Positions 3,305 through 27,169 of a stretch of DNA of 64,000 nucleotides are shown here, piece by piece. The translations under genes and the position numbers were made by a program. The notes beneath the pieces are model-generated. The model was not told where the DNA came from, did no database searches, and saw only the letters and a program-made list of their open reading frames with translations. Each line of letters starts with the position of its first letter. The first letter of the stretch is position 1. This stretch comes from Alphaproteobacteria bacterium (GTDB lineage Bacteria > Pseudomonadota > Alphaproteobacteria > MPNO01), in the NCBI GenBank assembly GCA_965202905.1, contig OZ241868.1, positions 2,524,208-2,588,207 of the forward strand, read 5' to 3'.

Positions 3305-3477
3305 ATGACCAGCCATCGAAACGCCCTTGTACCCCCCCCCCCCCCCCGCAGGATGAGGCGCGGGAACGCTGGACCCGGCCGATGATCCGCGAACTGGGCC
3401 GCGCCCAGACGACGGAAAGCGGCACTGCCGCTGGTACAGCTGAGAATACCGAATATTTCGACATCGACGCGTCGTAG
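3305..3477 (+). CDS. Lasso precursor A1, core SGTAAGTAENTEYFDIDAS; out of frame at a C16 tract as assembled
   Basis: MTSHRNALV-(C16, 3332-3347)-QDEARERWTRPMIRELGRAQTTE|SGTAAGTAENTEYFDIDAS*. WxxPxI motif, Thr at -2, Ser1, Glu9. In-frame reading needs 3n+2 C. Confidence 0.85.
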
Positions 3478-3571
3478 ACCCGACTCTCGGACATCATGCG
3501 GATCGTCCACAGGCGGCCGACGGCGCGATACGGCGCGACAGAGCCCAACTCTTGAACTCTGGGAGGAGAAC

Positions 3572-3745
3572 ATGACCGACCACCGAAACGCCCTTGTACC
3601 CCCCTCCTCCCCGCAGGATGAGGCGCGGAAACGCTGGACCCGGCCGACGATCTTCGAACTGGGCAACGTCAAGGTGACGGAGGGCGCCACTGCTGCCAGG
3701 GATGTCGAGAGTGGTACTCATTACCCCCTCAGCCAGTCATCGTGA
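3572..3745 (+). CDS. Lasso precursor A2, core GATAARDVESGTHYPLSQSS; intact
   Basis: MTDHRNALVPPSSPQDEARKRWTRPTIFELGNVKVTE|GATAARDVESGTHYPLSQSS*. RBS GGGAGGAG. The C tract is interrupted by T's and stays in frame. Confidence 0.9.
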   Translation: MTDHRNALVPPSSPQDEARKRWTRPTIFELGNVKVTEGATAARDVESGTHYPLSQSS

Positions 3746-3940
3746 CGCACGGCCGCCGCCACTCTGCGGAGAGCGCGGCGCCGGGCTGACGAGGGCATCC
3801 GGGCCGAGGGCGTCGGGGCGCGGCGGCGGCGCCAGGGTTGTGTCGGCATACCGGCCCGGCATACCCGACGAGGCGAAGCCAGTGCGATTGCGGGGAATGC
3901 GTGGTTGCGCGGGGGTGCGGCGCACACGATTGGAGGGTGA

Positions 3941-4399
3941 ATGCGGCGGTTGAGCGCGTTCCTTCGTGCGCCGGCGTCGACCAAGGCGCTGGTCGTGGAG
4001 GCCTTGGTGCTGTTCCTGGCGGCGCGGCTGCTGGTCGCGCATGTGCCCATGCGCCACTGGCGTCGCCGGCTGGAGACCCGTATTCAGGCCGGCGACCCGC
4101 TGCCGGAGGGCGACCCGCGCGGGGACACGGCGCGGCAGGTGGCCCGTGCGGTGCGGGCGGCGGCCCGCAATGCGCCCTTCGCCGCCGTCTGCCTGCCGCA
4201 AGCCATGGCCGCGCAGTGGATGCTTCGCCGCCGCTCCATTCCGGGCCGCCTGGTGTTCGGGGTGCGCCGCCGCACCGACGGAGGCGGGCTGCAATATCAC
4301 GCCTGGCTGATTGTGGACGGGCACTGCCTGGTCGGCGGGGGAGAGATCAAGACCTACGCGCCGCTGCCCCCGATCGACGCGGTCGGAGGCCGCGCTTGA
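3941..4399 (+). CDS. Lasso peptide B2 protein (transglutaminase-like leader peptidase)
   Basis: AVCLPQAMA (catalytic Cys), FGVRR and YHAWL (catalytic His); 152 aa; RBS GGAGG. This is the only intact copy in the window. Confidence 0.92.
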   Translation: MRRLSAFLRAPASTKALVVEALVLFLAARLLVAHVPMRHWRRRLETRIQAGDPLPEGDPRGDTARQVARAVRAAARNAPFAAVCLPQAMAAQWMLRRRSIPGRLVFGVRRRTDGGGLQYHAWLIVDGHCLVGGGEIKTYAPLPPIDAVGGRA

Positions 4400-4517
4400 G
4401 GTCTTGTGCGGTCTGGCTTGCGCGGTCTGGAGTGCCGTGCGAGAGTAGCCGGACTGCGCGATGTGAAGCTGAAGTCGAGACCGAGACCGGAAAGGAGAGT
4501 GGGACAGGAACGACGGC

Positions 4518-4698
4518 GTGAAGAAATCACTCGAGAGCGCCTCCCCCGCGAGGGTATGGCAGCGCGGAGACGACGCGCTGGACCCGGCCGACGATCCGCG
4601 AACCGGGCCGCGTCTGGAGGACGGAAGGCGGCCCCGATCCTTCGGCATCTGAGAACGCTGGTTATTACGACGCCCCGATCTATGACAACAGTAGTTAG
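4518..4698 (+). pseudogene. Lasso precursor A3, core GGPDPSASENAGYYDAPIYDNSS; leader frameshifted or lacking a start
   Basis: RWTRPTIREPGRVWRTE|GGPDPSASENAGYYDAPIYDNSS* has Glu9. The VKK-type leader start (GTG 4518) is in another frame. Confidence 0.75.
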
Positions 4699-4714
4699 GG
4701 GCTCGACGCGACGA

Positions 4715-4955
4715 GTTGGCGTCTGCCTGCCGCAAGCCCCGTCTGCCTGCCGCAAATCAGGGGGGCCGCGCAGTGGATGCTTCCTCGGTCCGGAGACGGG
4801 GCCGCCGCTGCATTCCGGGCCGCGTGGCGTTCGGGGCGCCGCGCGGCGCTGACGGAGGCGGGCTGCAATACCACGCATGGCCGATTGCGGACGGGCGCCG
4901 CCCGGTCGGCGGGGGAGAGATCGAGACCTGCGCGCCGCCGCCCCCCGCCTGACAT
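4715..4955 (+). pseudogene. Decayed B2 3' fragment
   Basis: CLPQA, AAQW and GGGLQYHAWPIADGRRPVGGGEIETCAP remnants in shifting frames. Confidence 0.75.
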
Positions 4956-4970
4956 GGAAACCGGTCGGCC

Positions 4971-5519
4971 TTAAAGGCGGCGCAGAATTCGGGCCAATCG
5001 CGCAAGGGTTCGGAACGCGCCCAGCCATCCCGCACCCGTCGGCCGCGCGCGGCGGACCGCGCCGGGCGCCGGGATCGCCATGCCTTTCCGGGCGGATCGC
5101 CAATCCTTCGGGCGCTGCCATTCACCGGCCCACAACCCCGCTCGTTCGCGCTTCGCCCGGCGTTCGTCGCTGCTGTAGTCCGGGGGGCCATATTCGGCGA
5201 CGGCGAAGCCATTGCGGACAAGCCATTGGCAGGCGTCCTCGCGCTTGCGGCCGTTCGTCAGGATGACGCGGCCGATGGTTCGCCCGTAGCGGTCGGCCCC
5301 TTTCCCGGCGTCTTCGATGTTGATGCGCCATCCCTCACGCTGGCGGCGGCGAAGATACGCGGCGAAGGCTTCCGTTGCAGCTTGCCCGGCGTCGAATTCG
5401 CGGCCCCTTGCGTTGCGCGCCGGCTGGCCGTTTTCGGGCGCATCGATTCCGGCGAGGCGCACCGGGCCGACGCCCGGAATGTCGAGCGTATCGGCGTCTA
5501 TCAAGCGGCCCTGGCTCAC
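4971..5519 (-). CDS. Thermonuclease (SNase-like) family protein
   Basis: DADTL…VRLAGIDAPE…DRYGRTIG…LVRNGFAV…AKRERAGLWAGEWQRPKDWR. Likely start is GTG at 5519. Confidence 0.85.
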   Translation of the reverse strand: MSQGRLIDADTLDIPGVGPVRLAGIDAPENGQPARNARGREFDAGQAATEAFAAYLRRRQREGWRINIEDAGKGADRYGRTIGRVILTNGRKREDACQWLVRNGFAVAEYGPPDYSSDERRAKRERAGLWAGEWQRPKDWRSARKGMAIPAPGAVRRARPTGAGWLGAFRTLARLARILRRL

Positions 5520-5529
5520 AGGGGCGCGC

Positions 5530-5725
5530 CCTGGAGGTACTTCGCGACCGCGTTGCGTTCGGCCTTCGCGCCGGCGGCGTAGTGGGCGACCATGCGGGCC
5601 GTCTTCCACCCGCCGGAAAGCATGGCTTCGGTGGTGGACGCGCCGCGCGCGTTCGGGGCGGTTTTCACGTCGCGCCATTCGAGCGTGGCGGCTTCGGAGC
5701 GTCGGAGCGCGCCTTGTCGTGATCG
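5530..5725 (-). pseudogene. Internally deleted tyrosine recombinase (Cre/XerD-like) remnant
   Basis: GALRRSEAATLEWRDV (box I R..E) is fused directly to GASTTEAMLSGGWKTARMVAHY (box II with catalytic Tyr). Confidence 0.7.
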
Positions 5726-5856
5726 GGCGGGGCGTGATCGGGCGGGGCGTCGAGGCGAGCGAGCGCCCGGCGGCGGGGCGTTCCGCATCGCCGGCGCAAG
5801 CGCTGCGCCCGCCAGCCCGGTCGCCGCTGGCGACGGCGCGGGAACCCGGCTGGGGG

Positions 5857-6129
5857 TCATCGGCTGGTCCCCGTCGGCGCCGTGCGCGCGATCAACGCTT
5901 CGAGCGCCCGCATCGCTTCGGCGTGACGCTGGTCATCGGCGGCGATCCCGGCGGCGATTCCGGCGTCGCGCGCGCTGGCGTTCTGCTGCACCAGCCGCAA
6001 GCCCCAGGCGATCAGGAGGCATTGCGCGATCCCGATGGCGACGCCGCCGACGGTGGCCCATGCGGAGATTTCCCGCCAGCCCAGCGAGGCGGCGTGAAAG
6101 GCCAGCGTGGCGGTTTCGAACCCGGTCAT
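5857..6129 (-). CDS. Small single-TM hypothetical protein, copy 1 (90 aa)
   Basis: MTGFETATLAFHAASLGWREISAWATVGGVAIGIAQCLLIAWGLRLVQQNASARDAG…HAEAMRALEALIARTAPTGTSR; seven paralogous copies in the window. Confidence 0.7.
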   Translation of the reverse strand: MTGFETATLAFHAASLGWREISAWATVGGVAIGIAQCLLIAWGLRLVQQNASARDAGIAAGIAADDQRHAEAMRALEALIARTAPTGTSR

Positions 6130-6195
6130 GGCGGACCTTCTCTGTTCCGATCTGTTCCGATGATGCTCGTTGGCGACGGACGGCGCAATTCGATG

Positions 6196-6224
6196 TTGAC
6201 CGGCGGGCCGCCGGTAAGTACGAT
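6196..6224 (+). promoter_or_regulatory. Sigma70-like precursor promoter
   Basis: TTGACC-N17-TACGAT. Confidence 0.65.
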
Positions 6225-6314
6225 CTGCGTGTGCTGGATGTGGATCGCTCACAGACGGTTGACGGTGCGATACGGCACGACCGAGCCCAACTCTTGATCT
6301 CTGGGAGAGAAGAC

Positions 6315-6489
6315 ATGACCAACCACCGAGACGCCCTTGTACCCCCCCCCCCCCCCCCCGCAGGATGAGGCGCGGACACGTTGGACCCGGCCGATGATCC
6401 GCGAGCTGGGCCGCGTCCAGGTGACGGAAGGCGGCCCCCATTCTGAACTTACTGAGAATGACACATATTTCGACGTCAACGCATCGTGA
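6315..6489 (+). CDS. Lasso precursor A4, core GGPHSELTENDTYFDVNAS; out of frame at a C18 tract
   Basis: MTNHRDALV-(C18, 6342-6359)-QDEARTRWTRPMIRELGRVQVTE|GGPHSELTENDTYFDVNAS*; Glu9. Confidence 0.85.
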
Positions 6490-6759
6490 CGCACGGCCGC
6501 CGTCAGTCTGCGGAGCGCGCGGCGCCGGGCCGGTGACGTGAGCTCCGGAAACGGAGCGTTCGGTCCCCGGGCCGGGCCTGCCTCGCGTTCGCAAGCCGGC
6601 CGCACGGCTTCGTCGACTTGGTCTGGCCCCCTGGTCTGGCCCAAGGCGATGCCGGCCCGGCTCCCGGTCGGCCACGCGATCGACGTTCGCTGCGCTTGAG
6701 AACGTGTCAGCGGACCGTCTTGCCCTCTCGTGGATGAACCGGGGGATGAACCGGGGAGA

Positions 6760-6931
6760 CGGGGCCGCCGCTCCATTTCGGGCCGCTTGGCGTTCGGGGC
6801 GCGGGTGCGGCGACGGTGGGCTGCAATGCCACGCTTGGCCGGTTGCGGACGGGCGCCGCCCGGTCGGCGGGGGAGAGACCGAGACCTGCGCGCCGTTGCC
6901 CCCGCTTGACGCGGCCGGAGATCGCGCATAA
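6760..6931 (+). pseudogene. Decayed B2 3' fragment
   Basis: GGLQCHAWPVADGRRPVGGGETETCAPLPPLDAAGDRA matches the B2 C-terminus. Confidence 0.75.
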
Positions 6932-6998
6932 CATCTTTAGGTCTGGAGTACCGCGCGATAGCAGCGAGACCGGTCGAAGCCAGAAAGGAAACCGAGAC

Positions 6999-7172
6999 AT
7001 GAGCGACGGCGTGAAGAAGACTTTCAAAGATTACCCCCCGCAGGATGAGGCGCCGACGCGCTGGACCCGGCCGATGATCCGCGAACTGAGCCGCGTCCAG
7101 GGGACGGCAAGCGCCCTCGCTAGTGATGTGGTTGAGAATTCCCTATATTACATCCATGCGGACCTGTCATAG
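6999..7172 (+). CDS. Lasso precursor A5, core SALASDVVENSLYYIHADLS; intact
   Basis: MSDGVKKTFKDYPPQDEAPTRWTRPMIRELSRVQGTA|SALASDVVENSLYYIHADLS*; Thr-2, Ser1, Glu9; no long C tract. Confidence 0.9.
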   Translation: MSDGVKKTFKDYPPQDEAPTRWTRPMIRELSRVQGTASALASDVVENSLYYIHADLS

Positions 7173-7174
7173 AG

Positions 7175-7620
7175 CGCGGCGCTGGGCTGACGAAGGCATC
7201 CGGGCCGAGGGCGTCGGGACGCGGCGGCGGTATGCCGGCATACCCGACAAAGCGAATCCGGTGCGGTTGCGGGGATTGCGCGGGCGCGCGGCGCGCGGTT
7301 GATTAGGGCGAATGCGCCGGTCGAGCGCGCTCCCTCGCGCGCCGACATCGACCCCGGCGTCGACCAGGGCGCTGGTCGTGGAGGCCTTGCCGCCGTTCCC
7401 GGTAGCGCGGCTACCGGGCGCGTGCCCATGCGCCGCTGGCGTCGCCGGCTGGAGGTCCGTATTCGCGCCGGCGACCCGCTGCCGGAGGGTGGCCCGCACG
7501 GGCGCGCGGCGCGGCGGCGCGTTGCCGGCGCAAGCGCTGCATCTGCAAGCCCGGTCGCCGCTGGCGACGGCGCAGGTTGGACGGCCCCGACCTCGTCCGG
7601 CGCGGGAACCCGGCTGGCGG
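7175..7620 (+). pseudogene. Decayed copy of the B2 upstream region and 5' half
   Basis: STRALVVEAL…MRRWRRRLEVRIRAGDPLPEG remnants similar to 3780-4200. Confidence 0.7.
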
Positions 7621-7634
7621 TCATCGGCTGGCGG

Positions 7635-7940
7635 TCATCGGTTCGTCCCCGTCGGCGCCGTGCGCGCAATCAACGCTTCGAGCGCCCGCATCGCTTCGGC
7701 GTGGCTGGCGGCGTTCGCCTGCATGGCCTCTGCGTGACGCTGGTCATCGGTGGCGCGTCCGGCGGCGATCCCGGCGTCGCGCGCGCTGGCGTTCTGCTGC
7801 ATCAGCCGCAAGCCCCAGGCGATCAGGAGGCATTGCGCGATCCCGATGGCGACGCCGCCGACGGTGGCCCATGCGGAGATTTCCCGCCAGCCCAGCGAGG
7901 CGGCGTGAAAGGCCAGCGTGGCGGTTTCGAACCCGGTCAT
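7635..7940 (-). CDS. Small single-TM hypothetical protein, copy 2 (101 aa)
   Basis: MTGFETATLAFHAASLGW…DQRHAEAMQANAASHAEAMRALEALIARTAPTGTNR. Confidence 0.7.
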   Translation of the reverse strand: MTGFETATLAFHAASLGWREISAWATVGGVAIGIAQCLLIAWGLRLMQQNASARDAGIAAGRATDDQRHAEAMQANAASHAEAMRALEALIARTAPTGTNR

Positions 7941-8006
7941 GGCGGACCTTCTCTGTTCCGATCTGTTCCGATGATGCTCGTTGGCGACGGACGGCGCAAT
8001 TCGATG

Positions 8007-8035
8007 TTGACCGGCAGGCCGCCGGTAAGTACGAT
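8007..8035 (+). promoter_or_regulatory. Sigma70-like precursor promoter
   Basis: TTGACC-N17-TACGAT. Confidence 0.65.
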
Positions 8036-8125
8036 CTGCGTGTGCTGGATGTGGATCGCTCACAGACGGTTGACGGTGCGATACGGCACGACCGAGCCCA
8101 ACTCTTGATCTCTGGGAGAGAAGAC

Positions 8126-8277
8126 ATGACCAACCACCGAGACGCCCTTGTACCCCCCCCCCCCCCCGCAGGATGAGGCGGACGCGCTGGACCCGACCTG
8201 CGCGAGCTGGGCTGCGTCCAGGTGACGGAAAGCGGCACCCATAATGGCTGAGATGTAACGACAACGACGCATCGTGA
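8126..8277 (+). pseudogene. Lasso precursor A6, degenerate (C15 tract plus several small deletions); core resembles A7
   Basis: MTNHRDALV-(C15)… then GTGACGGAAAGCGGCACCCATAATGG…AACGACAACGACGCATCGTGA, which is the A7 core with deletions. Confidence 0.75.
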
Positions 8278-8539
8278 CGCACGGCCGCCGTCACTCTGCG
8301 GAGAGCGCGGCGCCGGGCCGGTGACGTGAGCTCCGGAAACGGAGCGTTCGGTCTCCGGGCCGGGCCTGCCTCGCGTTCGCAAGCCGGCCGCACGGCTTCG
8401 TCGACTTGGTCTGGCCCCCTGGTCTGGCCCAAGGCGATGCCGGCCCGGCTCCCGGTCGGCCACGCGATCGACGCTCGCTGCGCTTGAGAACGTGTCAGCG
8501 GACCGTCTTGCCCTCTCGTGGATGAACCGGGGGGATGAA

Positions 8540-8719
8540 CCGGGGAGACGGGGCCGCCGCTCCATTTCGGGCCGCTTGGCGTTCGGGCGCGGGTGCGGCG
8601 ACGGTGGGCTGCAATGCCACGCTTGGCCGGTTGCGGACGGGCGCCGCCCGGTCGGCGGGGGAGAGACCGAGACCTGCGCGCCGTTGCCCCCGCTTGACGC
8701 GGCCGGAGATCGCGCATAA
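8540..8719 (+). pseudogene. Decayed B2 3' fragment (duplicate of 6760-6931)
   Basis: Same translated remnant as the ORF-track entries at 6704 and 8492. Confidence 0.75.
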
Positions 8720-8786
8720 CATCTTTAGGTCTGGAGTACCGCGCGATAGCAGCGAGACCGGTCGAAGCCAGAAAGGAAACCGAGAC

Positions 8787-8957
8787 ATGAGCGACGGCGT
8801 GAAGAAGACTTTCAAAGATTACCCCCCGCAGGATGAGGCGCCGACGCGCTGGACCCGACCGACGATTCGCGAGCTGGGCTGCGTCCAGGTGACGGAAAGC
8901 GGCACCCATAATGGTCTTCTTGAGACTGCAACATATAACGACAACGACGCATCGTGA
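8787..8957 (+). CDS. Lasso precursor A7, core SGTHNGLLETATYNDNDAS; intact
   Basis: MSDGVKKTFKDYPPQDEAPTRWTRPTIRELGCVQVTE|SGTHNGLLETATYNDNDAS*; Glu9. Confidence 0.9.
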   Translation: MSDGVKKTFKDYPPQDEAPTRWTRPTIRELGCVQVTESGTHNGLLETATYNDNDAS

Positions 8958-9035
8958 CGCACGGCCGCCGTCACTCTGCGGCGAGGGCGGTTTTCGTGGC
9001 GTCCCGCGCGTCGCTCGATCGACGATAACAGCCAG

Positions 9036-9347
9036 TCACACCCTGTCGTCCCGTTTTCGCGGCCGGATGACGCGCTGGAGAATGGCGCCGAGCGCCGCGC
9101 CGGTGAGGACCGACAGCGCAAGGGCGACCCAGCGCAGACCGGCGGACATCTCGCCGAACGGGACGCCGGTGAGAACGGACAGCGCCACGAACGGCGCCAT
9201 GAAGGCCGTGCCGAGACCGGGCGACGCCTGAAGACCCAGAAACAGCCCGACAAAGGGCGCGAACAGGCCGAAAACGGCCCCCGCGATCAGTCCCGTCCGC
9301 AGGGATCGAAGACCGGTCGGCACGACGAGGCGGCGGGGCCGTTTCAT
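9036..9347 (-). CDS. Small multi-TM hypothetical membrane protein (103 aa), copy 1
   Basis: MKRPRRLVVPTGLRSLRTGLIAGAVFGLFAPFVGLFLG…VALALSVLTGAALGAILQRVIRP; hydrophobic; duplicated at 18434-18745. Confidence 0.65.
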   Translation of the reverse strand: MKRPRRLVVPTGLRSLRTGLIAGAVFGLFAPFVGLFLGLQASPGLGTAFMAPFVALSVLTGVPFGEMSAGLRWVALALSVLTGAALGAILQRVIRPRKRDDRV

Positions 9348-9729
9348 TGGTTTCGCGCCTGCCCTTTCGGTACGCGCCACCCCACACCGTCTTTGCCCGT
9401 GACCCGTTGTTTCTCAACGTCCCTCCAAGGGGGTCCCGATGCGACGACCGGCGAAAGATCTTGCCGACCGATCGCGCATCGCGGCCGTCCTCGACGCCCG
9501 CCTGCATCGTGGCCCGTGGGCGCGCCTTGTCGTGACCGGGCGGGGCGTGATCGGATGTGGCGTGATCGGGCGGGGCGTGATCGGGCGGGGCGTCGAGGCG
9601 AGCGAGCGCCCGGCGGCGGGGCGTTCCGCATCGCCGGCGCAAGCGCTGCATCCGCCAGCCCGGTCGCCGCTGGCGACGGCGCGGGTTGGACGGCCCCGAC
9701 CTCGCCCGGCGCGGGAACCCGGCTGGCGG

Positions 9730-10054
9730 TCATTGGTTCGTCCCCGTCGGCGCCGTGCGCGCGATCAACGCTTCGAGCGCCCGCATCGCTTCGGCGTGGC
9801 TGTCTGCGTGCGCTTGCATGGTTTCGGCGTGCGCCTGCATCGCTTCTGCGTGACGCTGGTCATCGGTGACGCGCCCGGCGGCGATCCCGGCGTCGCGCGC
9901 GCTGGCGTTCTGCTGCATCAGCCGCAAGCCCCAGGCGATCAGGAGGCATTGCGCGATCCCGATGGCGACGCCGCCGACGGTGGCCCATGCGGAGACTTCC
10001 TGCCAGCCCAGCGAGGCGGTGAAAGGCCAGCGTGGCGGTTTCGAACCCGGTCAT
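9730..10054 (-). pseudogene. Small single-TM protein, copy 3, frameshifted
   Basis: A 2-nt deletion near 10017-10020 relative to the other copies; extra HAETMQA heptad. Confidence 0.65.
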
Positions 10055-10330
10055 GGCGGACCCCCTCTGTTCCGATGATGCTCGTTGGCGACGGACGGCG
10101 CAATTCGACATCGACCGACGGCCGCCGGTCAGTACGATCGGCGCGTGTCGAAGGCGGCGGTTGAGGGCGTTCCTTCGCGCGCCGCGGCGTCGACCGAGGC
10201 GCTGGTCGTGGAGGCGCGGTCAGCTATCGCGCGCGCCCATGCGGCGCCGGCTGGAGACCCGTATTCGCGCCGGCGACCCGCGCGGGTTGGACGGCCCCGA
10301 CCTCGCCCGGCGCGGGAACCCGGCTGGCGG

Positions 10331-10636
10331 TCATCGGCTGGTCCCCGTCGGCGCCGTGCGCGCGATCAATGCTTCGAGCGCCCGCATCGCTTCGGCGTGG
10401 TTGGCGGCGTGCGCCTGCATGGCTTCTACATGACGCTGGTCATCGGTGGCGCGCCCGGCGGCGATCCCGGCGTCGCGCGCGCTGGCGTTCTGCTGCATCA
10501 GCCGCAAGCCCCAGGCAATGAGGGCGCATTGCGCGATCCCGATGGCGACGCCGCCGACGGTCGCCCATGCGGAGACTTCCTGCCAGCCCAGCGAGGCGGC
10601 GTGAAAGGCCAGCGTGGCGGTTTCGAACCCGGTCAT
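10331..10636 (-). CDS. Small single-TM hypothetical protein, copy 4
   Basis: MTGFETATLAFHAASLGWQEVSAW…. Confidence 0.7.
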   Translation of the reverse strand: MTGFETATLAFHAASLGWQEVSAWATVGGVAIGIAQCALIAWGLRLMQQNASARDAGIAAGRATDDQRHVEAMQAHAANHAEAMRALEALIARTAPTGTSR

Positions 10637-10682
10637 GGCTCGTTCCGATGATGCTCGTTGGCGACGGACGGCGCAATTCACG

Positions 10683-10711
10683 TTGACCGACGGGCCGCCG
10701 GTAAATACGAT
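10683..10711 (+). promoter_or_regulatory. Sigma70-like precursor promoter
   Basis: TTGACC-N17-TACGAT. Confidence 0.65.
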
Positions 10712-10790
10712 TAGCGCGTGCCGAATGTGGATCGCTCACAGGCGGCCGACGGCATGACAGAACCCAACTCTTGACTCCGGGAGAGACAAC

Positions 10791-10980
10791 ATGCCCAACC
10801 ACCGAGACGCCCTCCGTACCCCCCCCCCCCCAGGATGAGGCGCGGAAACGCTGGACCAGGCCGATCGTCCGCGAATGGGACGGCATGACAGAGACGACGA
10901 GCGATGTCTTCACGTCCAGTAAAGACACTACCGCGGAAGATGAGGGTACATACAGCTATATGAATACCAACGCGTCATGA
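10791..10980 (+). CDS. Lasso precursor A8, core probably SDVFTSSKDTTAEDEGTYSYMNTNAS; +1 frameshift at or near a C13 tract
   Basis: RBS GGGAGAG and ATG at 10791. MPNHRDAL… then QDEARKRWTRPIVREWDGMTETT|SDVFTSSKD…NAS*. Positional alignment gives Ser1/Asp9. Confidence 0.75.
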
Positions 10981-11690: not shown

Positions 11691-11692
11691 TA

Positions 11693-11821
11693 CCGGTCCT
11701 CCCACCCGGTCCTCCCACCCGGTCCTCCCACCCGGTCCTCCCACCCGGTCCTCCCACCCGGTCCTCCCACCCGGTCCTCCCACCCGGTCCTCCCACCCGG
11801 TCCTCCCACCCGGTCCTCCCA
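11693..11821. repeat. VNTR, 13-bp unit CCGGTCCTCCCAC x about 10
   Basis: Perfect tandem copies read directly from the sequence. Confidence 0.95.
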
Positions 11822-18333: not shown

Positions 18334-18349
18334 ACCCGACCCTCAGGCA

Positions 18350-19200
18350 TCATGACGCACGGCCGCCGTCACTCTGCGGCGAGGGCGGTTTTCGTGGCGT
18401 CCCGCGCGTCGCTCGATCGACGATAACAGCCCGTCACACCCTGTCGTCCCGTTTTCGCGGCCGGATGACGCGCTGGAGAATGGCGCCGAGCGCCGCGCCG
18501 GTGAGGACCGACAGCGCAAGGGCGACCCAGCGCAGACCGGCGGACATCTCGCCGAACGGGACGCCGGTGAGAACGGACAGCGCCACGAACGGCGCCATGA
18601 AGGCCGTGCCGAGACCGGGCGACGCCTGAAGACCCAGAAACAGCCCGACAAAGGGCGCGAACAGGCCGAAAACGGCCCCCGCGATCAGTCCCGTCCGCAG
18701 GGATCGAAGACCGGTCGGCACGACGAGGCGGCGGGGCCGTTTCATTGGCTCCCCGCCTGCCCTTTCGGTACGCGCCACCCCACACCGTCTTTGCCCGTGA
18801 CCCGTTGTTTCTCGACGTCCCTCCAAGGGGGTCCCGATGCGACGACCGGCGAAAGATCTTGCCGACCGATCGCGCATCGCGGCCGTCCTCGACGCCCGCC
18901 TGCATCGTGGCCCGTGGGCGCGCCTTGTCGTGACCGGGCGGGGCGTGATCGGATGTGGCGTGATCGGATGGGCGTGATCGGGCGGGGCGTCGAGGCGAGC
19001 GAGCGCCCGGCGGCGGGGCGTTCCGCATCGCCGGCGCAAGCGCTGCATCCGCCAGCCCGGTCGCCGCTGGCGACGGCGCGGGTTGGACGGCCCCGACCTC
19101 GCCCGGCGCGGGAACCCGGCTGGCGGTCATCGGCTGGTCCCCGTCGGCGCCGTGCGCGCGATCAATGCTTCGAGCGCCCGCATCGCTTCGGCGTGGTTGG
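18350..19200. repeat. Dispersed duplication of about 8950-9800
   Basis: Near-identical DNA, including the 103-aa membrane protein gene. Confidence 0.88.
18434..18745 (-). CDS. Small multi-TM hypothetical membrane protein, copy 2
   Basis: Translation identical to 9036-9347. Confidence 0.65.
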   Translation of the reverse strand: MKRPRRLVVPTGLRSLRTGLIAGAVFGLFAPFVGLFLGLQASPGLGTAFMAPFVALSVLTGVPFGEMSAGLRWVALALSVLTGAALGAILQRVIRPRKRDDRV

Positions 19201-19432
19201 CGGCGTGCGCCTGCATGGCTTCTACATGACGCTGGTCATCGGTGGCGCGCCCGGCGGCGATCCCGGCGTCGCGCGCGCTGGCGCTTTGCTGCATCAGGTG
19301 TAAGCCCCAGGCAATGAGGGCGCATTGCGCGATCCCGATGGCGACGACGCCGACAGCGGCCCATGCGGCAATCTGTTGCCAGCCCAGCGAGGCGGCGTGA
19401 AAGGCCAGCGTGGCGGTTTCGAACCCGGTCAT
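19127..19432 (-). CDS. Small single-TM hypothetical protein, copy 5
   Basis: MTGFETATLAFHAASLGWQQIAAWAAVGVVAIG…. Confidence 0.7.
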   Translation of the reverse strand: MTGFETATLAFHAASLGWQQIAAWAAVGVVAIGIAQCALIAWGLHLMQQSASARDAGIAAGRATDDQRHVEAMQAHAANHAEAMRALEALIARTAPTGTSR

Positions 19433-19674
19433 GGCGGACCCCCTCGTTCCGATGATGCTCGTTGGCGACGGACGGCGCAATTCGACATCGACCGACGGGC
19501 CGCCGGTCAGTACGATCGGCGCGCGCCGCGGCGTCGACCGAGGCGCTGGTCGTGGAGGCGCGGCCAGCTATTGCGCGCGCCCATGCGGCGCCGGCTGGAG
19601 ACCCGTATTCGCGCCGGCGACCCGCGCGGGTTGGACGGCCCCGACCTCGCCCGGCGCGGGAACCCGGCTGGCGG

Positions 19675-19980
19675 TCATCGGCTGGTCCCCGTCGGCGCCG
19701 TGCGCGCGATCAACACTTCGAGCGCCCGCATCGCTTCGGCGTGGCTGTCTGCGTGCGCCTGCATCGCTTCTGCGTGGCGCTGGTCATCGGTGACGCGCCC
19801 GGCGGCGATCCCGGCGTCGCGCGCGCTGGCGTTCTGCTGCATCAGCCGCAAGCCCCAGGCGATCAGGAGGCATTGCGCGATCCCGATGGCGACGCCGCCG
19901 ACGGTGGCCCATGCGGAGACTTCCTGCCAGCCCAGCGAGGCGGCGTGAAAGGCCAGCGTGGCGGTTTCGAACCCGGTCAT
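19675..19980 (-). CDS. Small single-TM hypothetical protein, copy 6
   Basis: Paralog lying in a tandem unit of about 550-570 bp. Confidence 0.7.
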   Translation of the reverse strand: MTGFETATLAFHAASLGWQEVSAWATVGGVAIGIAQCLLIAWGLRLMQQNASARDAGIAAGRVTDDQRHAEAMQAHADSHAEAMRALEVLIARTAPTGTSR

Positions 19981-20246
19981 GGCGGACCCCTCTGTTCCGA
20001 TGATGCTCGTTGGCGACGGACGGCGCAATTCGACATCGACCGACGGGCCGCCGGTCAGTACGACCGGCGCGTGTCGAAGGCGGCGGTTGAGGGCGTTCCT
20101 TCGCGCGCCGCGGCGTCGACCGAGGCGCTGGTCGTGGAGGCGCGGCCAGCGCCCATGCGGCGCCGGCTGGAGACCCGTATTCGCGCCGGCGACCCGCGCG
20201 GGTTGGACGGCCCCGACCTCGCCCGGCGCGGGAACCCGGCTGGCGG

Positions 20247-20552
20247 TCATTGGTTCGTCCCCGTCGGCGCCGTGCGCGCGATCAACGCTTCGAGCGCCTG
20301 CATCGCTTCGGCGTGGCTGGCGGCGTGCGCCTGCATGGCTTCGGCGTGGCGCTGGTCATCGGTGGCGCGCCCGGCGGCGATCCCGGCGTCGCGCGCGCTG
20401 GCGCTTTGCTGCATCAGGTGTAAGCCCCAGGCAATCAGGGCGCATTGCGCGATCCCGATGGCGACGCCGCCGACGGTCGCCCATGCGGAGACTTCCTGCC
20501 AGCCCAGCGAGGCGGCGTGAAAGGCCAGCGTGGCGGTTTCAAACCCGGTCAT
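20247..20552 (-). CDS. Small single-TM hypothetical protein, copy 7
   Basis: Paralog in the tandem unit. Confidence 0.7.
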   Translation of the reverse strand: MTGFETATLAFHAASLGWQEVSAWATVGGVAIGIAQCALIAWGLHLMQQSASARDAGIAAGRATDDQRHAEAMQAHAASHAEAMQALEALIARTAPTGTNQ

Positions 20553-20615
20553 GGCGGACCCCCTCGTTCCGATGATGCTCGTTGGCGACAAACGGCGCAA
20601 TTCATGTTGTCCGGC

Positions 20616-21000
20616 GGCAGTGTCTCAGTTTGAAAATCTGCGGCCCCGGCTCGTTGAACCGGGGCCGCGAACCGGAGATCGATCGGAAGCGGTAGACCAG
20701 GCCCGGGCGCGGCGCCGCGGGAGCCTTCGGGCGGCCGTTCACCCCGGGCCCGGCGACCCGCGTAGCCCGCCTTCCGACGCTCTGCTTCACGCACGACGAC
20801 TTCGTGCGCCTCCACGAGACGCTGAGAGGCGCCCCGGCGATGGCGGCGGGCGTATCGGACACGCTGCGGGACACACGCTGCGGGACGGGGAATGGATCGC
20901 CGGGGAATGGATCGCCGGGGAATGGATCGCCGGGGAATGGATCGTCAACTCGATCGACGCGCAGGCGACGAAGCTATTCGATTCAAACCGAGACACTACG
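20616..21000 (+). mobile_element. Internally deleted IS (IS1-like family) remnant retaining both ends
   Basis: Left end GGCAGTGTCTCAGTTTGAAA and right end TTCAAACCGAGACACTAC form an imperfect inverted repeat. Internal DFVRLHETLRGAPAMAAGVSDTL is a transposase C-terminus. It contains GGGGAATGGATCGCC x4. Confidence 0.7.
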
Positions 21001-21119: not shown

Positions 21120-21295
21120 ATGACCAACCATCGAGACGCCCTTGTACCCCCCCCCCCCCCCCGCAGGATGAGGCGCGGAAACGCTGGACCCGGCCAACGA
21201 TCTTCGCACTGGGCGATGTCGAGGTGACGGAAGGCGCCACTTCTCCGAATGTCAAGGAGGATAACACCGAATACCCCTCGTCATCATCATCGTAG
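21120..21295 (+). CDS. Lasso precursor A10, core GATSPNVKEDNTEYPSSSSS; out of frame at a C16 tract
   Basis: MTNHRDALV-(C16, 21147-21162)-QDEARKRWTRPTIFALGDVEVTE|GATSPNVKEDNTEYPSSSSS*; promoter-like TTGACA-N17-GATGAT at 21011. Confidence 0.85.
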
Positions 21296-21572: not shown

Positions 21573-21759
21573 TTGCGGTTGCGGTTCCAGGGATTGCGCG
21601 GGCGCGCGGGTGCGCGGCGCGCATGGTCGGAGGGCGAACGCGGCGGCTGAGCGCGTTCTTTCGTGCGCCGGCGTCGACCCCGGCTTCGCCCGAGGCGCCG
21701 GTCGTGGAGGCCTTGCCGCCGTTCCCGGCGGCGCGGCTGGGGCGGGCTGAATCCAGCCC

Positions 21760-23187
21760 GTGGCGGGCGTGAGCGCGGAGTCCCGGGATCTCATCGAACG
21801 GCTGAGAGGCCTGCTCGGCGCCGCCGCCGTTCTGACCGAACCGGCCGACACGGAACCCTTCCTGATCGACGAGCGCGGCCGGTATCGCGGACGGGCGGCG
21901 GCGGTGGTGCGTCCCGCCGACGCCGAAGCGGTCGCCGCCACCGTAAGGCTGTGCGCCGGGCGCCTCGTCCCGATCGTCCCCCAGGGCGGCAACACCGGGC
22001 TGTGCGGGGCCGCGACGCCGGACGAGAGCGGGCGCGCGATCGTCCTCAGCCTTGCCCGGCTCGACCGGGTTCGCGCGGTCGATCCGGCGAACTACACCGT
22101 CACCGTCGAAGCGGGGGTGATCCTGGCCGACGTGCAGAAGGCCGCGGCCGCGGCCGACCGGCTGTTTCCGCTCAGCCTCGGCGGCGAGGGGACGGCCCGG
22201 ATCGGCGGGACTCTGTCGACCAACGCCGGCGGCGCCGGGGTTCTGCGCTACGGCAACGCGCGGGATCTGGTGCTGGGGCTCGAAGTGGTGCTGCCCGACG
22301 GCCGGATATGGGACGGGCTGTCGACGCTGCGCAAGGACAACACCGGCTATGACCTCAAGCATCTGTTCGTCGGCGCGGAAGGCACGCTCGGCGTCATCAC
22401 CGCGGCGGTCCTGAAGCTGTTCCCGCGGCCGCACGCGCTGGAGACGGCTCTGCTCGCGGTCGAAAACCCCGCGGCGGCCGTCGCGCTGCTCGCCCGCGCG
22501 CGCGCCGCGACGGGCGACCGGACGACGACCTTCGAGCTGATGCTGCGGACGCCGCTCGAGCTGGTCTTCGCCCACATTCCCGGTGCCCGCGATCCGTTCG
22601 AGACGCCCCATCCCTGCTACGCGCTGCTCGAGCTCGCCGCCGGCGCGGCCGATGACGACATCCGCACGCTGACCGAATCCTTCCTCGCCGAGGCAATGGA
22701 GGATGGGCTGGTGCGCGATGCGGTCATCGCCGGGAGCGGTGCCCAGGCGGCCGATTTCCGGAAGCTGCGCGAAACCATCCCCGAGGCGCAGAAACACGCC
22801 GGCGCCTCGATCAAGCACGATGTCTCGGTGCCGGTCTCCCGGGTCGCGGACTTCATGGACGAGGCCTCGCGGCGGGTGTCCGAGCGCGTACCGGGCCTCA
22901 GGGTCTGCGCCTTCGGCCATGTCGGGGACGGCAACATCCATTTCAACCTCAGCCAGCCCGAGGGCGCGGACGGCGCGGCGTTCATGGCCCGGGAGGACGA
23001 GCTCAACGGCATCGTCCACGACATCGTCGTCGCCATGCGCGGCAGCATCAGCGCCGAGCACGGCATCGGCCAGCTCAAGCGCGCCGCCCTCGTCCACTAC
23101 AAGCCCGCGGTCGAACTCGACCTGATGCGCCGCATCAAGGCGAGTCTCGATCCCGACGGCCTGATGAACCCCGGAAAGGTGCTCTGA
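21760..23187 (+). CDS. FAD-binding oxidoreductase (D-2-hydroxyacid dehydrogenase, GlcD-like)
   Basis: VPQGGNTGLCG, IGGTLSTNAGG, LRKDNTGYDLK, FGHVGDGNIH, SAEHGIG, MNPGKVL. Confidence 0.92.
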   Translation: MAGVSAESRDLIERLRGLLGAAAVLTEPADTEPFLIDERGRYRGRAAAVVRPADAEAVAATVRLCAGRLVPIVPQGGNTGLCGAATPDESGRAIVLSLARLDRVRAVDPANYTVTVEAGVILADVQKAAAAADRLFPLSLGGEGTARIGGTLSTNAGGAGVLRYGNARDLVLGLEVVLPDGRIWDGLSTLRKDNTGYDLKHLFVGAEGTLGVITAAVLKLFPRPHALETALLAVENPAAAVALLARARAATGDRTTTFELMLRTPLELVFAHIPGARDPFETPHPCYALLELAAGAADDDIRTLTESFLAEAMEDGLVRDAVIAGSGAQAADFRKLRETIPEAQKHAGASIKHDVSVPVSRVADFMDEASRRVSERVPGLRVCAFGHVGDGNIHFNLSQPEGADGAAFMAREDELNGIVHDIVVAMRGSISAEHGIGQLKRAALVHYKPAVELDLMRRIKASLDPDGLMNPGKVL

Positions 23188-23317
23188 ACCGGCGTCGGCG
23201 CCGCCCTGGCAGCGCCTTGGCGCGCCGGCAGACGCGGTTCGGCCGCCCCGCCGGCCCGGCCCGCCGCGTCTGCCGAAGCGCGTCCGCCGAACCGCGTCTG
23301 CCGAAAGGATCCCGACG

Positions 23318-25159
23318 ATGAGCGATTTCGCAGCCCCCTTGCGCGACATGCAGTTCGTGATCGAGGAGCTCGTCGGGCTCGAAACCGTCAACACGCTGCC
23401 CGGGCTCGACTGGGTGAGCAAGGATCTGGTGCGCGCGGCGCTCGCCGAGGCCGGGCGGTTGGGCGCCGAGGTCCTGGCCCCGCTCAACCGCACGGGCGAC
23501 ATCGAAGGCGCGCGGCTGGAGAACGGCGTCGTGACGACGCCCGCCGGATTCGCCGAAGCCTACCGCATTTTCGTCGAGGGCGGCTGGAACGGCGTGACCG
23601 CCCCGCAGGACCACGGCGGACAGGGGCTGCCCGGGCTGGTGGGCATGGCGGTCGGAGAAATCTGGGATTCGGCGAACCTCGCTTTCTCGCTCTGCCCGAT
23701 GCTGACCCAGTGCGCCGTCGAGGCGCTCAGCATCCACGGCTCGCCCGAGCAGCGGCGGACCTGGCTTCCCAAGCTGGTCAGCGGCGAATGGTCCGGCACG
23801 ATGGTCCTGACCGAGCCGCAGGCCGGCTCCGATGTCGGCGCGCTCAGGACCAGGGCGGCGCGCGAGGGCGACCACTACCGCATCGCCGGCCAGAAGATCT
23901 TCACCACCTGGGGCGACCACGAGATGGTCGAGAACATCGTCCACATGGTGCTCGCCCGGACCGCGGGCGCGCCGGCCGGGGTGAAGGGGATCTCGCTGTT
24001 CATCGTCCCCAAATACCTGGTCGATCCGGACGGCTCGCTCGGGCCGCGCAACGATCTGCGCCCGACCTCGCTGGAGCGCAAGCTCGGCATCCACGCCAGC
24101 CCGACCGCGGCGATGTCCTTCGGCGACGACGAGGGCGCGATCGGCTATCTGGTGGGCGAGGAGAACCGCGGTCTGGAATACATGTTCACCATGATGAACA
24201 ACGCCCGGATCGCGGTCGGGCGCGAAGGCCTGGCGATCGCCGAGCGCGCCTATCAGCAGGCCCGGGCCTACGCCCGCACCCGTATTCAGGGCCGCTCGAT
24301 CGCCGACCCGGCGGCCGGGCCGGTCGCCATCGTCGAGCACCCGGACGTCCGGCGTATGCTGGTGCGGATGAAGGCCGAGATCGAGGCCATGCGGGCGCTC
24401 GCCTATTCGATCGCCGCCGATCTCGATGTCGCGCGCCTTCACGCCGATGCGGCCGAGCGCGCGCGCCGTCGGGCCAGGGTCGACCTCCTGGCGCCGGTGC
24501 TCAAGGCCTGGTGCAGCGACCGGGGCGTGGCGATCGCCTCCGAGGCGGTCCAGGTCCACGGCGGCGCCGGGTTCATCGAGGAGACCGGCGCCGCCCAGCA
24601 CTACCGCGACGCCCGTATCGCCCCGATCTACGAAGGAACCAACGGCATCCAGGCGCTCGATCTCGTGCGCCGCAAGGTGCTGGGCGATGACGGCGCGGCG
24701 GTGCTGGCGCTGATCGACGAGATGCGCGCCCATGCCGGGCGGGAGGGCGCGGCCGAAACCGCGCCGATCCGCCTTGCGCTGGCCGCGGGACTCGATGCGC
24801 TCGAGGAGACCACCCGATGGCTGCTCGAGACCGCGGGATCTGCGGGCGCTGCGGGCGCTGCGGGATCCGAGGCCGCGGGCGCCGTGGGATTCGAGGCCGC
24901 GGCGGCCGCCGCGGCGCCCTATCTCGAAATCCTCGGCACGGTCGCGGGCGGCTGGATGATGGCGCGCGCGGCCGGGCTCGCCGTTGCCGCCGGGGCTGCC
25001 GCCGGGGCGACGGCCGACGGCGACGCGCCGTTCTACCGGACCAAGATTCAGACGGCGCGCTTCTACGCCGAGGTCGTCCTGCCGCGCGCCGCAAGCCTCG
25101 AACGGGCCGCCATCGGCGGCGCCCCGCTACTCGCCGATTTCGACGAGGCATGCCTCTGA
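23318..25159 (+). CDS. Acyl-CoA dehydrogenase (DmdC-like long form)
   Basis: GTMVLTEPQAGSDVG, KIFTTWGDH, EENRGLEYMFTMMNNARI, QVHGGAGFIEETG, IYEGTNGIQA. Confidence 0.92.
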   Translation: MSDFAAPLRDMQFVIEELVGLETVNTLPGLDWVSKDLVRAALAEAGRLGAEVLAPLNRTGDIEGARLENGVVTTPAGFAEAYRIFVEGGWNGVTAPQDHGGQGLPGLVGMAVGEIWDSANLAFSLCPMLTQCAVEALSIHGSPEQRRTWLPKLVSGEWSGTMVLTEPQAGSDVGALRTRAAREGDHYRIAGQKIFTTWGDHEMVENIVHMVLARTAGAPAGVKGISLFIVPKYLVDPDGSLGPRNDLRPTSLERKLGIHASPTAAMSFGDDEGAIGYLVGEENRGLEYMFTMMNNARIAVGREGLAIAERAYQQARAYARTRIQGRSIADPAAGPVAIVEHPDVRRMLVRMKAEIEAMRALAYSIAADLDVARLHADAAERARRRARVDLLAPVLKAWCSDRGVAIASEAVQVHGGAGFIEETGAAQHYRDARIAPIYEGTNGIQALDLVRRKVLGDDGAAVLALIDEMRAHAGREGAAETAPIRLALAAGLDALEETTRWLLETAGSAGAAGAAGSEAAGAVGFEAAAAAAAPYLEILGTVAGGWMMARAAGLAVAAGAAAGATADGDAPFYRTKIQTARFYAEVVLPRAASLERAAIGGAPLLADFDEACL

Positions 25160-25180
25160 GGCGTCTCGCAGCTCCCGCCA

Positions 25181-25230
25181 GACCCCTGCCCGCCGACCCC
25201 TGCCCGCCGACCCCTGCCCGCCGACCCCTG
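25181..25230. repeat. Short tandem repeat GACCCCTGCCCGCC x3.6
   Basis: Read directly from the sequence. Confidence 0.9.
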
Positions 25231-25254
25231 AAAGTCGTCCGGCGACGGGGGGGG

Positions 25255-26013
25255 GTGAGCTGGTTTGAAATTTCCCGCCTACGGCTCGAAGAAGTCCGCC
25301 GCCGACATTCACTAGTGGGGGCTTGAACGTCCAACCCTTCGCCTCGGCTTCCTGCCGTAGACATCATTCTAAATTTCGGATGTTGGACGACAAGCCCGGA
25401 TCGTCCGGATTTTCGATCTCATCTACGGCAACAGCTTGCCGATGTTCGCGGTTTTCTTTGCATGGGCTCAAGGCATAGCCGGAGGCCGCCGAGGGGCGTT
25501 CGGCGAGGGGGCATTCGGCAACGATGTCGATGACGCCATGCCGGTGAAGCCGCACGGCCCGGCCGAATGCGCCGGCATCCGCAAGCGATGGATCGAGGGC
25601 CGGCCCGATCCGGCTCATATCTCGACCAGTTCCATCGAGCGCAGCAACCCGACCCTGCGTATGTCGATCCGGGCGTATGTCGATCCGGGCGTATGTCGAT
25701 CCGGCGGTTCACGCGGCTGGCCAACGCCTTCTCGAAGAAGATCGGGAACCACGCCCACAATGTGGCGCTCCACCTCGGGCGCGACGATTTCCGTCGGCCA
25801 CGCATTGGCAACGCATCGGCAACTCGAGAGCCTCGACGGGATCGGCCCGGCAATGGCCGCCGGCGTTACGGCCCGGCTTTGGAACATCCCCGGCTTTGGG
25901 ACATCCCGGCTTTGGAACATCGGGGGCGTCGTGCGGCTGGTGGACGAAGCGGCGCCGAAGCCGAACCGACCCACCGCCTGTCGCAGCAAGCGGGAAATTT
26001 CAAACCAGCCCAC
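25255..26013 (+). mobile_element. Degenerate IS (IS1-like family) with a perfect 20-bp terminal inverted repeat
   Basis: GCTGGTTTGAAATTTCCCGC (25259-25278) and its reverse complement (25990-26009). Transposase remnants ISTSSIERSNPTLRMSIRRFTRLANAFSKKIGNHAH…PAMAAGVTARLW. Confidence 0.8.
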
Positions 26014-26285
26014 TACCCGGCGGCGAGCCGGCTGTAAGGGCATGGGCCGGATGTGTGCGCCGGACATGTGCGGCGTGCGTGCGGCGCTGGTGGATCGACC
26101 GAGACATTTGACCCCCCCGGCCGATCGTGGAGGGCCGAAAGTCTTTGCGAATCCGGGCTCGGACGGGCCGTGAACCGGCCGTAAACGGGGATTTTCGGGG
26201 CGTTTCAGGGGGCGTTCAGGGGCGGTAGATCCGGGCCGGGCCGTTTGGAGGGGTCGTTTCGGCGGTGAAGATCGAACCGTGCGGA

Positions 26286-26740
26286 TCAGCCGTCGGCGGC
26301 GTCTTCGCCTTCGTCCTCGTCGCAGGCGTCGAGGACATCGGCGAACTCGGCCGCGAACTGGTCGCGGGACACCCGCCGATCGACCGATCGCCCATCGGCC
26401 GGAAATTCCTGACCCGACAGGAGGCCGGGCACGCGCTCGGGCGTGATCGGCAGTTCGATCCCGTCGATGTCGAGCGCATCGGCGACGGCGCCGACGATGG
26501 CCGCAGGCGCCCCGATCGCGCCTCTCTCGCCCATGCCCTTGCAGACGCCCTCGGCCAGCGGCGAGGGCGGCTCCCGATGGACGATCTCGAGGTCGGTCCC
26601 TGCGAAGGCGGCGGGGATCATGTAGTCGGCGAACGGGCCGGTTCGGAGCTGCGCATCGTCGTCGCAGGCATCGTCGTCGCAGGCATCGTCGTCATAGAGG
26701 ATCTGCTCCAGCAGCGCCGCGCCGACACCTTGCGCGACCG
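26286..26740 (-). pseudogene. C-terminal fragment of a CoxL/xanthine dehydrogenase Mo-binding subunit
   Basis: AQGVGAALLEQILYD…DYMIPAA…KGMGERGAIGAPAAIVGAVADAL…LPITPERV. Confidence 0.75.
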
Positions 26741-26980
26741 TAGTTCCGCCGGGCCGGTATCGAAGCCGACCGCGGCGAGCCGGACTCATCCGCCCTGCCA
26801 ACCACGCGCACCGCGCCCCCGCGCAATCCCCGGAACCGCAACCGCACCGGATTCGCCTTGGGGTATGCCAAGCCGGTATGCCGACATATCCCCGCGCCCC
26901 GACGCCCTCGACCCGGACACCCTCTTCAGCCCGGCGCCGTCACTCTCCGCAGAGCGACGGCGGCCGTGCGTCATGATGTC

Positions 26981-27169
26981 TTAGGAGGAGGCGAAGGGGC
27001 CGAGGCCGGAGCCAAGCACATAATAACCTGAACTCTCTTCTGCCCCAGGATCAAGGCCGCCTGCCGTCCCCTGGACGCGGCCCAGCTCGCGGATCATCGG
27101 CCGGGTCCAGCGCGTCGGCGCCTCATCCTGCGGGGGGGGGGGTACAAGGGCATCTCGATGGTCGGGCAC
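26981..27169 (-). CDS. Lasso precursor A11, core GGLDPGAEESSGYYVLGSGLGPFASS; in frame (tract of 11)
   Basis: MPDHRDALVPPPPQDEAPTRWTRPMIRELGRVQGTA|GGLDPGAEESSGYYVLGSGLGPFASS*; G11 at 27132-27142 on the + strand. Confidence 0.9.
   Translation of the reverse strand: MPDHRDALVPPPPQDEAPTRWTRPMIRELGRVQGTAGGLDPGAEESSGYYVLGSGLGPFASS

Follow-up and report, generated by a model that had tools for sequence, protein, structure and literature searches.

Can the length of a cytosine run in the leader of a bacterial peptide precursor decide whether that precursor is translated? The question is raised by a 64,000-nt stretch of an alphaproteobacterial genome (GenBank assembly GCA_965202905.1, contig OZ241868.1, positions 2,524,208 to 2,588,207; hereafter the window), which holds a multicopy family of putative lasso peptide precursors, several of them with long poly-C tracts in their leaders. 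An earlier note on this DNA proposed that the tracts act as phase-variable switches for each precursor. We lean toward the view that the tracts are real, hypermutable simple-sequence repeats that toggle translation of the family members by frameshift, and set out below what carries this view and what competes with it.

A homopolymer scan of the window recovers six pure C tracts, each with the length and coordinates given in the earlier note:

3332-3347, plus strand: C16, in precursor cassette A1
6342-6359, plus strand: C18, in A4
8153-8167, plus strand: C15, in A6
10819-10831, plus strand: C13, in A8
21147-21162, plus strand: C16, in A9
27132-27142, minus strand: C11 (read as G11 on the plus strand), in A10

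At every tract-bearing gene a GGGAG Shine-Dalgarno sequence precedes an ATG or GTG start, and the tract begins 27 nt past the start codon (28 nt in A8). The encoded leader reads M-T-N-H-R-D-A-L-V-(Pro)n-QDEA-x-x-RWTRP, with variation over its nine N-terminal codons described by M-T/P-N/D/S-H-R-D/N-A-L-V. On the 3' side of the C run follow GCAGGATGAGGCG (Q-D-E-A), the conserved recognition region R-W-T-R-P-x-I-x-E-L-G, a Thr two residues before a Gly, Ser, or Ala, and a variable tail (the core) with Glu or Asp at position 8-9. The tracts thus lie inside coding leaders, and changes in their length must therefore shift the reading frame. Counted from the start codon, lengths of the class C(3n+2) are in frame, and all others run into a stop 5-17 codons past the tract. 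As assembled, only the C11 of A10 is in frame among the six pure tracts, which agrees with the earlier count. Re-initiation downstream of the tract was considered and rejected, since the stretch from the tract to RWTRP offers no start codon in the proper frame, and the ATG within CAGGATGAGG lies in the wrong frame.

Chance is ruled out as the origin of the tracts by a first-order Markov simulation of the window, in which 0.085 runs of at least 11 nt and 0.015 runs of at least 13 nt are expected, against 6 and 5 observed. The window has a G+C content of 69%, and the sole further homopolymer of at least 8 nt in its 64 kb is an intergenic G9 (25247-25255); within 42.6 kb of intact open reading frames (ORFs) the longest homopolymer measures 6 nt. 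Proline codons elsewhere are mostly CCG (65.5%, with CCC at 28%), so that pure CCC runs mark slippage expansion, unlike ordinary coding sequence.

The tracts belong to a larger set of ten precursor-like cassettes in the window, two of which (A3 and A6) look defective:

3305-3477, plus strand: A1, C16, out of frame as assembled, with leader and core intact in the downstream frame
3572-3745, plus strand: A2, interrupted tract CCCCCCTCCTCCCCG (PPSSP), in frame, as the earlier note had it
about 4522-4698, plus strand: A3, MNDGVKK-type N terminus, third leader subtype, C5 only, out of frame by one base
6315-6489, plus strand: A4, C18, out of frame as assembled
6999-7172, plus strand: A5, MSDGVKK leader, C6, in frame (protein P0010)
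8126-8244, plus strand: A6, C15, out of frame and damaged by additional deletions in the leader and in the core
8787-8957, plus strand: A7, MSDGVKK leader, C6, in frame
10791-10980, plus strand: A8, C13, out of frame
21120-21295, plus strand: A9, C16, out of frame
26981-27169, minus strand: A10, GTG start, C11, in frame

A protein search finds at least 8 further in-frame members of the family on the same 3,868,867-bp contig, and only in-frame copies are annotated as proteins in the assembly. A1, A4, A8, and A9 carry no second lesion: each keeps its leader motif, Thr at position -2, acidic ring residue, and stop codon. A6, by contrast with these, is likely a pseudogene, judging from its additional deletions. 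The C13 of A8 had been counted as a frame-breaking tract. The gene is indeed out of frame, but the cause lies elsewhere, in an extra base upstream of the tract (ctccgta versus cttgta); the C13 is a C11-type tract in which the following GC has become CC, and would by itself be in frame. A twin of A8 with identical leader and core (P0011) is found in frame elsewhere in the genome.

That these small genes are lasso precursors is suggested by their neighbors, listed here with the promoter of the first cassette:

145-1119, plus strand: sulfotransferase, a tailoring enzyme (Pfam Sulfotransfer_1, E 3.5e-24)
1122-2909, plus strand, start approximate: lasso cyclase, Asn-synthase-like C protein (Pfam Asn_synthase and GATase_7)
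3196-3224, plus strand: sigma-70-like promoter of A1, TTGACC-17-TACGAT (1 found, 0.0 expected; repeat families D10/D16)
3941-4399, plus strand: lasso B2 protease, transglutaminase-like (Pfam Transglut_core3, E 6e-24; NCBIfam NF033537, 83.9 bits, cut-off 33)

With a cyclase, a B2 protease, and a sulfotransferase adjacent, the small genes fit lasso-peptide precursors. Both enzymes that define a lasso cluster are present, the Asn-synthase-like macrolactam cyclase and the transglutaminase-like leader protease; the best NCBIfam match of the cyclase is the lasso isopeptide cyclase family NF033535 (E 4.5e-87), at 293 bits under the 525-bit cut-off. The predicted peptides show the expected Thr at -2, small residue 1, and Asp or Glu at core position 7-9, as in ...VQVTE/GGPHSELTE..., ...TTE/SGTAAGTAE..., and ...GTA/GGLDPGAEE... 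(the slash separating leader and core). No PqqD-like RiPP recognition element (B1; RiPP, ribosomally synthesized and posttranslationally modified peptide) was recognized among the window ORFs scanned, and the 98-aa ORF at 2991-3287 (plus strand), between the cyclase and A1 where B1 is expected, matches no Pfam or NCBIfam family and, by BLASTP, does not match the PqqD of a relative. The TTGACC-17-TACGAT box recurs upstream of other cassettes, and each precursor appears to be its own small transcription unit, with promoter, Shine-Dalgarno sequence, start codon, leader, and core.

We compared the family with two independent ENA assemblies that carry it, L117 and L118, the DNA tracts of P0009, P0011, P0002, and P0006 being deduced from proline counts. 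Exact-pattern scans of contig collections added no relative: a 17-mer matched genome contigs 113 times by chance, and a pattern of 20 specified bases had 3 unrelated matches in metagenome contigs. The comparison of orthologous loci, a check proposed in the earlier note, gives C16 for A9 against C15 for its L117 orthologue, likewise out of frame, between flanks that are 98.75% identical; P0004 has three prolines (C8, in frame) in the genome, and its L118 counterpart, identical in core, an out-of-frame C10. P0006 and P0012 differ by one proline (four versus five, or C11 versus C14) and are otherwise identical. A paralogue with the leader QNEAQKR reads C8 in DNA run X12 and C14 in the Illumina RNA run X5, and L117 also holds an A4-type leader with C11. 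In-frame paralogues encode 3 to 10 prolines (3, 4, or 10 within the genome), and the longest tract elsewhere in the genome reaches 29 nt, compared to a maximum of 18 in the window. By these comparisons the variation in tract length between copies, strains, and samples is real.

L118 bears on the leaders as well. Its MTNH-type leaders carry C11, C14, and C10, and its MSDGVKK-type leaders C6, C15, C17, and T+C11. The earlier statement that MSDGVKK-type leaders lack a tract consequently holds in the window (C6, in frame) and fails in L118, where the long tracts indicate a separate expansion of this Pro-Pro site in a second type of leader. We also observe MSDGVKK- or MNDGVKK-type N termini followed by a third subtype of leader (…ARNSNAELTRW / …SAETTRW), in A3 (4522-4698) and at 4480-4540 of L118, the L118 copy having an out-of-frame C17. 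The poly-C site is the junction between differing N-terminal leader modules and a common leader, and may be a recombination point too.

Frame and length are related. Among 20 cassettes from the window, L117, and L118, tracts of at least 13 nt are in frame in two cases and out of frame in seven, and shorter or interrupted tracts in nine and two (Fisher p=0.022); the share of 2/9 is no different from a random one third (binomial p=0.73). This fits short tracts that are stable and held in frame by selection, and long tracts whose frame is randomized by fast slippage or by miscalling. Both slippage and miscalling predict the pattern, which does not discriminate between them.

Copies that are out of frame are nevertheless transcribed. 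The precursor family is present at high contig depth in metatranscriptomes of 2016 and 2018, and for A9, whose frame is broken in two assemblies, contigs of three RNA runs extend over leader and core with 97-100% identity, at a transcript level resembling that of its neighbors. RNA contigs also contain the A1 5' untranslated region and the A8 core. The presence of A9, A1, and A8 sequence in RNA contigs shows that the loss of frame does not silence transcription of these copies. At position 21267, in the hypervariable core of A9, each of the three RNA runs with coverage reads A instead of C, a strain difference or an allele.

Taken together, these features allow us to propose a mechanism. Strand slippage during replication would add or remove Cs, and would do so faster with longer tracts. 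The N-terminal leader presumably tolerates any number of prolines, as the range of 3 to 10 seen in frame suggests, so that tract length would be unconstrained and tracts could grow. Gain or loss of any number of Cs not divisible by three would end translation 5-17 codons past the tract, and the next slip could restore the frame. As the tract follows the start codon and precedes the recognition part of the leader, slippage would toggle each precursor independently, and each cell lineage would translate a different, heritable yet reversible subset of cores, all processed by a single cyclase/B2 set. Runs of 3-10 prolines are stall sites that depend on elongation factor P (EF-P). The OFF state would probably be leaky, since tRNA-Pro, and perhaps RNA polymerase as well, can slip on a CCC run. 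On CCC-C, a classic +1 slippery site, the slipping of tRNA-Pro is restrained by m1G37 and EF-P (eLife 2020, PMC7577736), and OFF phase variants can keep a frame-dependent low expression (bioRxiv 10.64898/2026.04.01.715767).

Several observations count against such a switch, and they are given here with the alternatives to which they lend weight. The alternative that survives best, unlikely as we judge it, is neutral decay in a redundant library: an ancestral Pro-Pro-Pro site expanded by slippage, some 20 paralogues are weakly selected, and long-tract copies drift into pseudogenes with no functional, reversible switch. A6 combines a long tract with further decay, A3 is frameshifted without a tract, and the cassettes lie amid B2 fragments and duplicated blocks; the long tracts are in frame no more often than random expectation. 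Many perfect 13-16-nt tandem repeats lie in the same 30 kb, so that slippage may be generally frequent, and unselected, in this genome. The tract is also absent from the lasso clusters of other sponge-symbiont metagenome-assembled genomes (MAGs) (L119-L123, with cyclases about 50% identical), and there is hence no deep conservation to argue for function; the feature is young and lineage specific. Against decay stand A1, A4, A8, and A9, which have conserved promoters in addition to their otherwise intact sequences, as well as the neighbor-like transcription of A9, a gene whose tract has a different out-of-frame length in each of two strains with the rest of the gene kept. A frameshift in a homopolymer of 15-18 nt is moreover intrinsically reversible at high rate, unlike ordinary pseudogenizing lesions. 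Related lasso precursors in an acidobacterial sponge MAG (L122/L123, at about 18361 and 8348) have an (Glu-Arg)n repeat (ERERERERER) in the N-terminal leader, a different and frame-preserving repeat in an equivalent place.

The second alternative, that of a sequencing or assembly artefact, we consider distinctly unlikely: tract length would be stable and in frame at each locus (for example C14 or C17), and lengths out of frame would be long-read consensus miscalls of plus or minus one. Judging by the contig names ("ctg116279_7x_l", "contig_2") and the single 3.87-Mb contig, the DNA was probably sequenced by PacBio HiFi, and residual HiFi errors are predominantly homopolymer indels (bioRxiv 10.1101/2021.06.28.450238). 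A single base separates any out-of-frame length from one in frame, and with such errors the ON/OFF state of A1, A4, A6, and A9 therefore cannot be read from the assembly; single-base calls at C15-C18 are unreliable, and out-of-frame calls cluster in the longest tracts. Short reads too will struggle to size long tracts, as the Illumina RNA contigs break or enter poly-G artefacts there. In RNA run X11, Illumina contigs at 6360 and 21162 read C18 or more followed by G10-11, apparently an artefact of sequencing or of strand switching at the tract.

Read-level evidence on this point comes from Logan k=31 contigs of four runs, in which unique sequence of the organism is near-perfectly identical at depths of about 7-10x (X1), 21-23x (X2), 10-13x (X6), and 4-6x (X8). 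The contigs break in every long tract, and the flanks (about 8-13 nt per side) are common to paralogues; the depths below are those of short tract-spanning unitigs, long tracts are not assignable to loci, and summed depths are not copy numbers:

C9: X1 0, X2 0, X6 6.4, X8 0
C10: X1 0, X2 0, X6 8.8, X8 20.6
C12: X1 22.7, X2 31.9, X6 15.8, X8 8.6
C13: X1 0, X2 17, X6 7.1, X8 5.8
C14: X1 5.5, X2 12.5, X6 7, X8 9.6
C15: X1 0, X2 14.4, X6 11, X8 0
C16: X1 6.6, X2 14, X6 0, X8 6.5
C17: X1 6.1, X2 9, X6 6.3, X8 0
C18: none in X1, X2, X6, or X8

Part of this favors the artefact. The C18 of A4 as assembled is not seen in the read contigs of the four runs, and C17 and C14, both in frame, are present there and absent from the assembly. 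The rest argues against it. The C11 of A10, our control, lies within a locus-specific contig whose depth in all four runs is that of a full single copy (9.7, 20.8, 13.1, and 6.3 in X1, X2, X6, and X8). Rather than a single fixed in-frame length everywhere, the outcome that the earlier note had named as decisive against a switch, we find out-of-frame C12, C13, C15, and C16 at about 0.7-1.5x single-copy depth, in several runs; in X2 the values for C13 and C15 (about 0.7-0.8x) indicate that stutter at that length is modest. C9 and C10 are confined to the runs of sample S5, one of two samples, and the out-of-frame C10 allele of the gene that has C8 in the genome is recovered from an independent assembly and, among the unitigs, from those of a single sample only. 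Tracts so short are called reliably, and that allele, like the 2-, 3-, and 6-nt differences between matched genes, exceeds technical error.

The remaining alternative is frame-independent expression, in which ribosomal (+1/-1 on CCC-C) or transcriptional slippage yields some full-length precursor at any tract length and the tract is an EF-P-dependent throttle with no ON/OFF switch, and it is very unlikely: the slippery CCC-C, the residual expression of OFF variants, the reading of all frames of a pure C run as CCC, the stalling at proline runs, and the transcription of out-of-frame genes speak for it, but short stable tracts are in frame in 9 of 11 cases, which indicates that frame matters to selection, and documented spontaneous frameshifting, usually a few percent, would dampen the difference between ON and OFF without abolishing it.

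Toggling of each precursor by frameshift hence keeps the support of coding position, separate promoters, length polymorphism, and transcription of out-of-frame copies, and the ON/OFF pattern that the earlier proposal took from the assembly is not supported, the assembled states being untrustworthy. The mutability itself may be selected for or may be a tolerated by-product of redundancy, and redundancy in the library would weaken the selection that acts on an individual copy. It is possible, though doubtful, that the tracts form a selected contingency system in which cassettes flip independently and a clonal population samples about 20 sulfated lasso peptides combinatorially. We would only tentatively extend this to bet-hedging of secondary metabolism in a sponge host, and to a first case of repeat-driven phase variation of RiPP precursors.

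In pathogens, homopolymer slippage is a textbook cause of phase variation in surface antigens. By the sequence features used to recognize them, the tracts would qualify as simple-sequence repeat contingency loci, with a slippable homopolymer (at least about 8-9 nt) in the 5' coding region, a frame switch and truncated product upon change in repeat number, and length polymorphism at the same locus between strains or samples. Poly-G/C contingency loci of Neisseria, Haemophilus, Campylobacter, and Bordetella (PMC5084427, PMC8355987, PMC1891110) likewise have a G/C homopolymer of at least 9 nt in the 5' part of the ORF whose length shifts the frame, at several independent loci per genome and with lengths polymorphic between strains. 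Those loci target surface structures, restriction-modification genes, and receptors in mucosal pathogens, whereas the genes here encode RiPP precursor peptides in a high-GC sponge symbiont; the tracts are also longer here (18 nt in the window, 29 nt elsewhere), and all are paralogous copies of one site. The term phasevarion denotes a regulon whose expression follows the switching of a phase-variable DNA methyltransferase (mod). The tracts have in common with it the stochastic population heterogeneity generated by a simple-sequence repeat, yet no methyltransferase or regulon has a part in the locus and each precursor gene has a repeat of its own, and the term, which the earlier note had applied, should be dropped.

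Other comparisons concern the family and its symbiotic setting. Multi-precursor lasso clusters of proteobacteria, such as those of the caulonodins, caulosegnins, and the rubrivinodin type, similarly combine a cyclase and a transglutaminase-like protease with several precursors per cluster, a penultimate Thr in the leader, Gly, Ser, or Ala as residue 1, and a ring closed by Glu or Asp at 8-9. The present case differs from them by ten cassettes in the window and at least 8 elsewhere, by promoters of their own, by the sulfotransferase, and by the lack of a recognized PqqD/RRE gene in the window. The prochlorosins of Prochlorococcus are alike in having a conserved leader, hypervariable cores, single machinery, and dispersed precursor genes; they differ in being lanthipeptides, and no repeat-based switch on single precursors is reported there. 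In insect endosymbionts, poly(A)-tract frameshifts are reportedly rescued by transcriptional slippage, a finding attributed to Tamas et al. in 2008. Symbiont genes broken at long homopolymers are there too still transcribed and may give product, but that case is AT-rich, genome-wide, and affects essential genes, while here poly-C is found in one gene family and homopolymers are otherwise avoided.

Our literature search returned no paper tying RiPP or lasso precursors, or natural-product precursor genes, to repeat-mediated phase variation, and no described lasso precursor with a homopolymer tract in its leader. If lasso precursors do switch independently, one genotype would yield a shifting peptide cocktail, which would bear on how symbionts diversify chemical defense or signaling and on the reading of "broken" precursors in metagenomic predictions of biosynthetic gene clusters; heterologous expression would then need a chosen tract length. 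This case also carries a practical warning for long-read MAGs, in which frameshifts at long homopolymers make gene callers miss real small precursor genes.

Further features are found among and beside the cassettes. A staphylococcal-nuclease-like ORF (SNase, E 1e-11) lies at 4971-5678 on the minus strand, among the precursor cassettes. A unit of about 570 nt is present in seven copies on the minus strand, at 5857-10735 and 19127-20973; the copies encode small ORFs that have no Pfam or NCBIfam match, and stand divergently beside precursor promoters. Of the tandem repeats, a perfect 13-nt array, CCGGTCCTCCCAC x9.9, is located at 11693-11821, and many more perfect 14-16-nt repeats are found within the first 30 kb of the window. 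Another perfect 13-nt array, GCCAACGGCGAGG x13.1 at 29086-29255, is situated immediately upstream of an ATG at 29265 in an apparent divergent promoter region, where its 13-nt period could alter promoter spacing or frame.

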